A DNA stretch of 64,000 nucleotides from an uncultured Rhodobacteraceae bacterium (GCA_947497065.1 CANMEQ010000001.1:198208-262207); one strand, 5' to 3'. Positions 27,256-32,585 are shown, counted from the stretch's first letter. The notes: generated by a model not told the origin, from the letters alone. Numbers and translations are program-made.

Positions 27256-31613
<4,358 letters not shown>

Positions 31614-31641
31614 GGTGATTTGGAACATTTTGTTCACTTTT

Positions 31642-31656
31642 GTTCTCAAAAAGTTC
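31642..31656 (+). promoter_or_regulatory. LexA (SOS) box, alphaproteobacterial type
   Basis: GTTC-TCAAAAA-GTTC is an exact GTTC-N7-GTTC. Extra half-sites at 31623 (GAAC), 31632 (GTTC), 31680 (GAAC-N7-CAAC), 31700 and 31713. Confidence 0.75.
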
Positions 31657-31661
31657 TTGCT

Positions 31662-31676
31662 TTAACGTCTGGTTAA
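31662..31676. promoter_or_regulatory. CtrA binding site
   Basis: TTAA-CGTCTGG-TTAA is an exact TTAA-N7-TTAA. Confidence 0.72.
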
Positions 31677-31722
31677 TGAGAACAAAGGGGCAACAAAGAG
31701 AACATCATCGAGGAACAGCACA

Positions 31723-31845
31723 ATGGCACAAGAGATCAAAAGCGTAATCGCAAGATCTTCCGACACACTTATCGCAGATGCGATCGGCGTGGTAAGCCTG
31801 ATGGTGATGTTGTTTGGTGCGCTCGCTTTGCCCAGTTTCTTCTAA
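31723..31845 (+). CDS. Putative 40-aa small membrane protein (below the ORF-track cutoff)
   Basis: MAQEIKSVIARSSDTLIADAIGVVSLMVMLFGALALPSFF*; GAGGA SD upstream; one C-terminal hydrophobic helix. Confidence 0.72.
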   Translation: MAQEIKSVIARSSDTLIADAIGVVSLMVMLFGALALPSFF

Positions 31846-32009
31846 CTGCCTGCTGCGTTTTGTGCGGTGAACCAGATCATCTGTCCCAACTCCGGTGTTT
31901 TCCCAAAACGCCGTTTGATCTGACTACGTCCGACACTGCCTGTCTCGACCAAATACGGGAGCCTGCCTTTCCCGATATGCCACCGGTCCCAACATAAAAC
32001 GCATTTCTG

Positions 32010-32053
32010 CCGCTGCTTTCCACTGTCCCGGAAAGCAGCGGTTTTTTCTTTTT
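32010..32053 (+). terminator. Rho-independent terminator
   Basis: 12-bp perfect stem CCGCTGCTTTCC / GGAAAGCAGCGG, 8-nt loop, then TTTTTTCTTTTT. Confidence 0.85.
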
Positions 32054-32063
32054 AATGAGGTGT

Positions 32064-32516
32064 TTACGCAGACTTTGCGTTCTGCGCGTTGGCCATGGCT
32101 TCCAATGTCGCGTCAAAGGCCAACATGATCGACATATGTCTGTTTTTATACTCAGCCGCTGGGCCCAAAACCTCAAGCGCATCAAAAGGTGCATCCGGTG
32201 CAGGTCCACCAGATTTCAACATGGACAGCAATTGGTCACGACCGGTTTGCACCTCGTCTTGCGTGCGGCCGATGATGTTTTGCCCCACCACGGCAGCCGC
32301 AGCTTGCCCCAATGCGCAGGCTTTAACGTCCTGACCAAAGGCGGTCACTTTGCCGTCCGCCACGTTAACGTCCACGGTCACAGTTGACCCACATAGGGGC
32401 GAACGCCGCTTCGCTGTCGCGTCGGGCTCCTCCAATCGTTGACTGTGAGGGATATCAGCGGCAAGCCCGAGAATGCGTGTAGAGTAGAGTTTGATCAGGT
32501 CGCTATCAGCGGACAT
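32064..32516 (-). CDS. NifU/IscU N-terminal-like Fe-S scaffold family protein
   Basis: LIKLYS.RIL.LAA, SPLCGSTVTVD, VKACALGQAAA, NRHMSIMLAFDA. Confidence 0.82.
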   Translation of the reverse strand: MSADSDLIKLYSTRILGLAADIPHSQRLEEPDATAKRRSPLCGSTVTVDVNVADGKVTAFGQDVKACALGQAAAAVVGQNIIGRTQDEVQTGRDQLLSMLKSGGPAPDAPFDALEVLGPAAEYKNRHMSIMLAFDATLEAMANAQNAKSA

Positions 32517-32585
32517 GGAATTGCCTTTGCGTTGCTTGCAGCATAGATAGGGCGCATGGGGCATGATGCCAAAGGAAAAACGCGT

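Follow-up and report, generated by a model that had tools for sequence, protein, structure and literature searches.

Directly behind recG, in a 64,000-nucleotide (nt) stretch of DNA from an uncultured Rhodobacteraceae bacterium (GCA_947497065.1, CANMEQ010000001.1:198208-262207; the whole stretch is referred to here as the window, and positions are counted from its first letter), lies a short open reading frame (ORF), at 31723–31845 on the + strand, that is almost certainly a real protein-coding gene. Its 40-residue product is predicted to cross the inner membrane once, and the gene is preceded by LexA-type boxes that are conserved at fixed spacing. By analogy with SidA of Caulobacter crescentus, we propose, with a probability of roughly 0.4, that the small protein is a damage-induced inhibitor of cell division; this is the reading ranked first among the functional alternatives considered below.

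A conserved small gene behind recG

The frame opens with ATG, closes with TAA (31843–31845) and encodes MAQEIKSVIARSSDTLIADAIGVVSLMVMLFGALALPSFF; the Shine-Dalgarno sequence GAGGA (31710–31714, + strand) stands 8 nt 5′ of the start codon. The ORF and ribosome-binding site given in a preliminary description of the window thus read exactly as stated there; the gene, which that description calls missed by the ORF track, is shorter than common ORF length cut-offs. That description had named conservation behind recG as a check, and the ORF was recovered across the family at that position. In a tblastn-type search of 60 relatives, 22 of the 23 genomes of the same genus carry the frame without internal stops (63–98% identity), full length wherever the contig holds all of it, with weaker matches in further genera of Rhodobacteraceae. 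A profile built from 19 sequences matched 244 of 301 genomes, representing 243 of 300 genera (at least 81%) of the same GTDB family, almost always once per genome. This frequency is an underestimate, because diverged orthologues escape the profile: four family genomes that it missed, Dinoroseobacter among them, still hold a diverged ORF of 38–40 codons directly behind recG that keeps both the helix pattern and the LexA-type boxes. Diverged orthologues are present in genomes G123, G064 and G122 (loci L191, L192 and L193), and the Hasllibacter example reads MQDFLAILSYQPRAALRDAVALAGLTGALFAALHAPLL. Nothing comparable was found behind recG in eight genomes from other alphaproteobacterial families, and the profile had no matches outside Rhodobacteraceae.

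The substitution pattern is that of a coding sequence. The frame is open in all 48 orthologous loci aligned (29 genera), with 40 codons in 46 of them and 42 in the other two, and pairwise differences among 47 orthologues fall on codon positions 1, 2 and 3 in 31, 20 and 49% of cases, respectively. The other two same-strand frames run into stops in 46 and 19 of the 47. Of 47 orthologues, 43 have some form of Shine-Dalgarno word (GGAG, GAGG or AGGA) 8–14 nt ahead of the start codon, and in one more it stands 17–19 nt ahead of the provisional start. Public protein collections contain 854 clusters (at 90% identity) that match the profile and 522 representatives at 50% identity, nearly all of 38–42 residues, the longer ones having the look of over-extended starts. 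No cluster member carries a fused domain or a Pfam match, and every name given to one is "hypothetical protein"; no paper describing this protein family was found in the literature.

Predicted architecture of the protein

The structure predicted by AlphaFold2 from an alignment of 35 orthologues comprises a helix at residues 2–11, a break at S12 and a second helix at residues 13–39, with a mean predicted local distance difference test (pLDDT) score of 88. The hydrophobic moment of residues 2–12 is 0.52, marking the first helix as amphipathic, and the 19-residue Kyte-Doolittle mean is approximately 2.0 or more in every window from residue 15 on and above 2.0 for residues 16–38. Hydrophobicity, hydrophobic moment and structure prediction therefore agree with the short amphipathic N-terminus and single transmembrane helix originally described, and in the resulting model the amphipathic helix leads into a lone membrane-spanning helix, past which only 2–3 residues extend. 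Invariant or near-invariant positions are R11, S12, T15, D19, G22, L26, L30, L34, L36 and P37, and the conserved Thr/Asp/Gly face together with the LxLP end suggests specific packing against another membrane protein. Database searches with the 40-residue protein returned no Pfam family up to E = 10 and, from NCBIfam, only MtfM (E = 0.041, 13.7 bits against a cut-off of 37.5), a match confined to the hydrophobic helix.

LexA-type boxes in the promoter region

Upstream of the gene, the triple repeat GTTC-N6-GTTC-N7-GTTC (31632–31656, + strand), with its repeats 10 and 11 base pairs (bp) apart, ends in an exact GTTC-N7-GTTC of the alphaproteobacterial LexA type (box II, 31642–31656, + strand). 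Box II abuts the −35-like hexamer TTGCTT (31657–31662, + strand), which was assigned by its position and conservation; in the alignments it is TTGCAT in most of the genus and TTTACA in most other genera. Further downstream, GAGAAC-AAAGGGG-CAAC (31678–31694, + strand) contains box III, GAAC-N7-CAAC (31680–31694), which carries one mismatch, is oriented opposite to box II, and probably overlaps the −10 region and transcription start. The conserved TGAGAAC at this place fits what we take to be the ANAWC end of a Caulobacter-type −10 element.

These elements are held with little variation. Of 68 loci that were fetched through a protein search, and so were not selected for their promoter, 67 retain the exact box II and 63 retain GAAC-N7-CAAC. 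Over a larger set of 179 loci the exact N7 box is present in 177 and the triple GTTC repeat in 157, and in 58 of 60 loci box II and GAGAAC are separated by exactly 21 nt. Information content is about 2 bits per position inside the boxes and near zero around them. Conversely, scanning with the promoter pattern only, one genome per species, returned at least 120 loci, all in Rhodobacteraceae-type records, and 112 of 120 among the matches listed have the small ORF 30–95 nt downstream.

The same motif accompanies recognized SOS genes. Outside long ORFs this genome has about ten exact boxes, including those before lexA, uvrA and imuA-imuB-dnaE2, while its recA is preceded by GTTC-N7-GGTC and then GAAC-N7-GAAC, the same two-box layout in opposite orientations as at the small gene; box III resembles GAGAACAAGTGCAGAAC, which lies downstream of the recA −10. 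The placing of LexA boxes directly upstream of the ORF in the preliminary description is thereby borne out, with an exact box whose motif is shared with lexA, uvrA, imuA-imuB-dnaE2 and recA. Because the boxes are conserved at fixed spacing and are used at SOS genes, LexA control is well supported in silico, and we regard it as very probable. As a separate observation, another of the roughly ten boxes, an exact GAAC-N7-GAAC outside the window at C3:178137, lies between a gene for a 755-residue ribonucleotide-reductase-like protein (putative nrdJ) and a divergent gene for a 143-residue protein, pointing to possible SOS control of deoxynucleoside triphosphate supply.

An occasional CtrA-type box

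Joint control by SOS and CtrA had also been put forward. Only the first part of this claim stood: the LexA boxes recur across the family (67 of 68 loci), whereas 6 of the 20 species compared within the genus have the full CtrA-type box, and all 48 loci that represent other genera lack it. In the species at hand the box is indeed present as described, as an exact TTAA-N7-TTAA with palindromic half-sites (31662–31676), and it is the single match in the 64-kb window, where 0.12 would be expected; TTAACCAT was considered as an alternative CtrA-type consensus. Its position in the promoter spacer is one where a bound protein would matter. Moreover, TTAA-N7-TTAA is enriched 5–6-fold in the intergenic DNA of this genome (18 observed against 3.2 ± 1.9 expected from shuffles), so that most such boxes are probably functional. 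These points speak for co-control of the gene by CtrA through 31662–31676, which would tie SOS to the cell-cycle, motility or gene-transfer-agent regulon. Set against them are the narrow distribution of the box and the behavior of its halves: one half-site is present in 11 and the other in 15 of the 20 species, which under independence would put them together in 8.25 species, more than the 6 in which both are seen, and the second half-site lies within a conserved GTTAAT, just before GAGAAC, that is probably kept for another reason, as part of the promoter. We therefore consider CtrA co-control decidedly improbable, although an input confined to this species is possible. The composite LexA/CtrA arrangement reduces to LexA plus an occasional, probably fortuitous CtrA-like word, and a link to motility or gene transfer agents would have this non-conserved box as its sole basis. 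The 18 intergenic TTAA-N7-TTAA sites (for example C2:466933, C2:466957, C8:74898 and C3:352867) form, in their own right, a list of candidates for the CtrA regulon of this genome.

Leader, 3′ untranslated region and terminator

No structure is predicted for the leader between GAGAAC and codon 16 (fold z = −0.31), so the ribosome-binding site is not hidden. Behind the stop codon, the transcript would continue through a conserved, structured 3′ untranslated region (UTR; 31846–32008, + strand), in which a long closing helix surrounds three hairpins, to an intrinsic terminator of the unit (32009–32052, + strand) with a 13-pair stem, the loop ACUGUCCC, a T-run and compensatory changes. Approximately 165 nt of non-coding sequence separate the stop from the terminator, and the whole 3′ UTR comes to about 190 nt. 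The RNAalifold consensus for 15 species of the genus contains 39 pairs, and compensatory changes support 5 of these. The closing helix is formed by GCGUUUCGUGC...GCACGAAACGC and includes a C-G to U-A exchange; the CAGAUC/GAUCUG hairpin presents CUGUCCCAAC, and two small hairpins present CUGCC. The exposed motifs CUGUCCC, CUGCCU and GUCCCA recur in other genera. No Rfam family matches the transcript, PhrS (E = 0.18) lying far below its gathering score. From these features, the 3′ UTR may be a small RNA (sRNA) derived from the mRNA and co-induced with it in the SOS response.

Transcript and annotation evidence

One contig from an oyster metatranscriptome bears on expression: it is 164 nt long, with a 134-nt insert between Illumina adapters that is 100% identical to an orthologue locus (genome G293) and reaches from 8 nt upstream of the start codon to 6 nt beyond the stop codon (L051, positions 690–823). 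It is the only RNA match that came from searching sequencing runs with the window, this orthologue and a Planktomarina locus. The insert is compatible with transcription, weakly so, as a single fragment for which DNA carry-over is possible. Sequencing runs with matches at approximately 88% identity were rejected as RNA evidence, being DNA-like assemblies of relatives.

In Dinoroseobacter shibae, the orthologue (locus L190; NC_009952, approximately 1,573,145–1,573,267, + strand) is MFTEIKSIVTRAPASLAQDATGALAILVLFAAMLHLPVLI, preceded by GTTCTTAAAAAGTTC-TTTAC, and the exact protein is encoded on 88 contigs of public assemblies. It is unannotated, falling in the gap between Dshi_1510 (recG, which ends at 1,573,042) and Dshi_1511 (which starts at 1,573,442) in the RefSeq table used for a 2019 transcriptome and network study of this organism; because it falls in this gap, published gene-level transcriptomes of D. 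shibae never reported it. The same 2019 study predicts LexA sites genome-wide, and its supplement does not contain this box. The LexA sites noted "upstream of recG" in some alphaproteobacteria by a comparative study of 2012 were considered and set aside, as they are not the site described here.

Neighboring genes and distribution

The syntenic anchor of the locus, recG (29514–31613, + strand; Pfam RecG_wedge, DEAD, Helicase_C and RecG_dom3_C), lies outside the unit and ends 109 nt before the ATG of the small gene. RecG's C-terminus is encoded upstream of the ORF, on the same strand, in all 48 loci, with a gap of 78–147 nt except for one of 620 nt. The 68 loci fetched by protein search likewise all have the gene behind recG, nearly always with 40 codons. 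The first 4 nt of recG (29514–29517) are also the last of ligA, so the two are probably co-transcribed, and as a terminator scan found no terminator-like site on the + strand between the recG stop and the small gene, read-through into the latter is possible. On the other side, a convergent gene for a 166-residue protein (32064–32564, − strand; no Pfam family at E ≤ 1e-5) adjoins the unit in 38 of the 48 loci. The small gene is absent from 50,697 phage records, and the only plasmid records that contain it are two very large replicons (0.6 and 1.6 Mb). Its single copy, its synteny and its absence from phages and ordinary plasmids together point to a core function, not to a mobile toxin.

Proposed function and alternatives

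The mechanism that we propose is built around a self-contained, LexA-repressed and hence SOS-inducible unit of about 360 nt, situated behind recG in nearly all Rhodobacteraceae. Without damage, LexA would occupy GTTC-N7-GTTC beside the −35 element and GAAC-N7-CAAC over the −10 and start; cleavage of LexA, stimulated by RecA, would free the promoter, and the unstructured leader with its strong Shine-Dalgarno sequence would permit immediate translation of the 40-residue protein. This would insert as a single inner-membrane helix, with the amphipathic N-terminal helix at the cytoplasmic face, and T15, D19, G22 and the LxLP end would let it bind a larger membrane protein specifically, helix to helix. 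The likeliest partner in our ranking is the late divisome (FtsW/FtsI/FtsN), such that septation would be delayed until repair is done, as with SidA in Caulobacter, while the folded 3′ UTR of the same transcript may serve as a co-induced small RNA. What the analysis establishes is the gene, its boxes with their conservation and its synteny, together with a predicted membrane-helix architecture; LexA binding, damage induction, the promoter assignment, the topology, the partner and the effect on division are what the scheme infers.

Division control is ranked first for several reasons. The host has no SulA: the best match to PF03846 in the whole genome scores 12.2 bits, below the cut-off of 23.1, in keeping with the earlier statement that no recognizable SulA is present. 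Many bacterial SOS regulons include one small membrane-anchored division inhibitor (PMC4211646, PMC6051672, PMC13396833). The gene is core, vertically inherited, single-copy and syntenic; its leader is open, unlike those of type I toxin mRNAs; and the conserved polar face of the protein suggests a protein partner as opposed to pore formation.

Several considerations nevertheless weigh on the other side. For every member of the family, LexA binding, induction, localization and phenotype are predictions from sequence. Intergenic DNA shows no significant excess of exact LexA-type boxes (10 observed against 7.5 expected), and genome-wide the exact words are no commoner than base composition would give (87 observed against 100 expected), so that the case for LexA rests on conservation and on the company that the motif keeps. 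The second half of box III is always CAAC and never GAAC, which is odd for a LexA site, and this element may instead belong to the promoter or leader; the first GTTC pair has N6 spacing, which is not that of LexA; and scanning with the sigma-70 consensus found no promoter, and no −10 at the usual spacing. Read-through from ligA-recG may add expression that is independent of LexA. In the protein, the 15-residue N-terminus has a net charge of 0 in this species, which makes the predicted topology insecure. Searches of Pfam and NCBIfam revealed no similarity to known division inhibitors, and the neighborhood offers no clue. Finally, a partner in the divisome is indistinguishable from any other membrane partner, and a toxin or a modulator of another membrane complex would look the same in sequence.

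Of the alternatives, the one that fares best makes the protein an SOS-induced accessory or regulatory subunit of another membrane machine, such as a transporter, a respiratory complex, a protease, the DNA uptake apparatus or an anchor for the chromosome or repair factors, with no direct part in division. Most characterized bacterial small membrane proteins bind varied larger membrane proteins (reviewed in PMC12648545), and T15, D19, G22 and the LxLP end fit helix-helix recognition without naming the partner. The flanking genes, ligA-recG and an unrelated convergent gene, indicate no such machine, however, and the SOS regulons of other bacteria typically use small membrane proteins for division control or as toxins, which leaves this alternative possible but on the unlikely side. 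Compatible with the proposed division inhibitor is a dual-function SOS transcript universal among Rhodobacteraceae, whose peptide would inhibit the late divisome and whose 3′ UTR would be set free as an sRNA that acts in trans, altering the expression of other mRNAs through its exposed CUGUCCC and CUGCCU loops; this combination is conceivable, though unlikely.

We hold it to be quite unlikely that the product is an SOS-induced membrane toxin of the TisB/DinQ kind, which would depolarize or permeabilize the inner membrane, lower ATP, and bring about dormancy and tolerance. The regulatory logic and the size class are those of TisB and DinQ of Escherichia coli, and one hydrophobic helix with a conserved acidic residue would suit such a role. 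On the other hand, the protein belongs to no toxin family of Pfam (searched to E = 10) or NCBIfam, and its unstructured leader exposes the Shine-Dalgarno sequence, in contrast to the translational lock usual in type I toxin mRNAs. Sequence scans revealed no minus-strand terminator or conserved antisense element, the conserved RNA being on the same strand, though antisense transcription is possible. The single-copy, syntenic and vertical inheritance of the gene, off phages and true plasmids, contrasts with the patchy, multi-copy occurrence of type I toxins.

Were the GTTC repeats bound by a regulator other than LexA, for instance a response regulator that recognizes direct repeats at helical periodicity, the unit would lie outside the SOS response altogether. 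Three repeats at 10 and 11 bp with an N6 first pair, a box III that lacks the canonical GAAC second half, and the absence of genome-wide enrichment of exact boxes would all suit such a regulator. Yet the N7 pair is exact in 177 of 179 loci and matches the lexA, uvrA, imuA and recA boxes of the same genome, and a position beside a repair gene fits the SOS response, so that we judge a non-LexA regulator very improbable. That the RNA is the functional product, an SOS-induced small RNA whose ORF is incidental or leader only, is scarcely credible. In its favor, conservation of the 3′ UTR matches that of the coding region, and the fold includes 5 covarying pairs and repeatedly exposes C-rich motifs. 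Against it, the coding substitution pattern, fixed length, kept Shine-Dalgarno sequence and invariant residues across approximately 300 genera argue for the peptide. Peptide and RNA are not mutually exclusive, and a transcript with both functions is likelier than one that acts solely as RNA.

Comparison with known systems

The closest parallel to the proposed division inhibitor is SidA of Caulobacter crescentus, a 29-residue, SOS-induced inner-membrane inhibitor of division that acts on FtsW (PMC4211646). Both genes are alphaproteobacterial and have LexA-type boxes, both products are very small and consist essentially of one (predicted) transmembrane helix, and both hosts are without SulA. The recG-linked protein differs from SidA in its length (40 versus 29 residues), its additional conserved amphipathic N-terminal helix, its fixed place behind recG and its structured 3′ UTR. 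No homology between the two emerged from Pfam, NCBIfam and profile searches, the SidA sequence itself not being among those compared. DidA, from the same organism, is a 71-residue single-pass membrane protein that inhibits division through FtsN and is damage-induced independently of SOS, under activation by DriD (PMC4211646). It too is a small single-pass membrane protein, and damage induction would be a further likeness of the recG-linked gene; in contrast, DidA is larger, with periplasmic and cytoplasmic tails, and is SOS-independent, whereas the recG-linked gene has LexA-type boxes.

TisB/IstR-1 and DinQ/AgrB of E. coli are LexA-controlled type I toxin peptides with their RNA antitoxins; this role is described for TisB in PMC11575346. 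As in those systems, the recG-linked gene combines a LexA box with a small hydrophobic inner-membrane peptide (27–29 residues in TisB and DinQ). TisB and DinQ, however, have antisense or trans-acting antitoxin RNAs, locked leaders and a narrow, patchy spread, while in the recG-linked gene the leader is open, no antisense partner is seen, and vertical inheritance extends across the whole family.

The SOS-induced single-pass membrane division inhibitors YneA of Bacillus, SosA of Staphylococcus and ChiZ of Mycobacterium (PMC13396833, bioRxiv 10.1101/364299, PMC6051672) share with our proposal the checkpoint logic, namely an SOS-induced, small, membrane-anchored block of late division. Their activity resides in sizeable extracytoplasmic domains (LysM or a C-terminal segment), whereas the 40-residue protein would extend only 2–3 residues past its helix. 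For the RNA, the mRNAs of ccaF1-CcsR1-4 and RSP_7527-UdsC in Rhodobacter sphaeroides provide precedents with 3′-UTR-derived small RNAs (PMC8625941, PMC9779115): like the recG-linked unit, each consists of a short message encoding a small protein, with a structured and conserved 3′ UTR running up to a terminator. They have no sequence relation to the present transcript and depend on RpoHI/RpoHII, not LexA. RSP_7527-UdsC, a 300-nt mRNA with a 3′-UTR sRNA, was also considered as a published orthologue and rejected, since its primers and probe share no conserved motif with the family and its promoter is RpoHII-dependent.

The kind of system is thus known, in that SidA, TisB and DinQ are likewise tiny membrane proteins encoded behind SOS boxes, and the present family is non-homologous to them as far as tested. 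New here are the N-terminal amphipathic helix, the fixed position behind recG, the structured RNA tail and a far wider conservation than that of SidA, TisB or DinQ.

Significance

To our knowledge, checkpoints of the SulA type do not extend beyond gammaproteobacteria, nor SidA beyond Caulobacter. The gene described here is a candidate answer to the question of how the abundant marine Rhodobacteraceae (the roseobacter group, Paracoccus and Rhodobacter) halt division or survive DNA damage, and, as the sole uncharacterized gene found in this work with strongly conserved LexA-type promoter boxes, it is a concrete and easily tested one. If the peptide does act on FtsW, FtsI or FtsN, the septal synthase would have a second minimal inhibitor of independent evolutionary origin, and one useful for dissecting the activation of this complex. 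A 3′ UTR that does act as an sRNA would add post-transcriptional control to the SOS response of these bacteria; and should the transcript have both functions, one LexA-controlled RNA of 360 nt would supply the checkpoint with a protein effector and an RNA effector at once.

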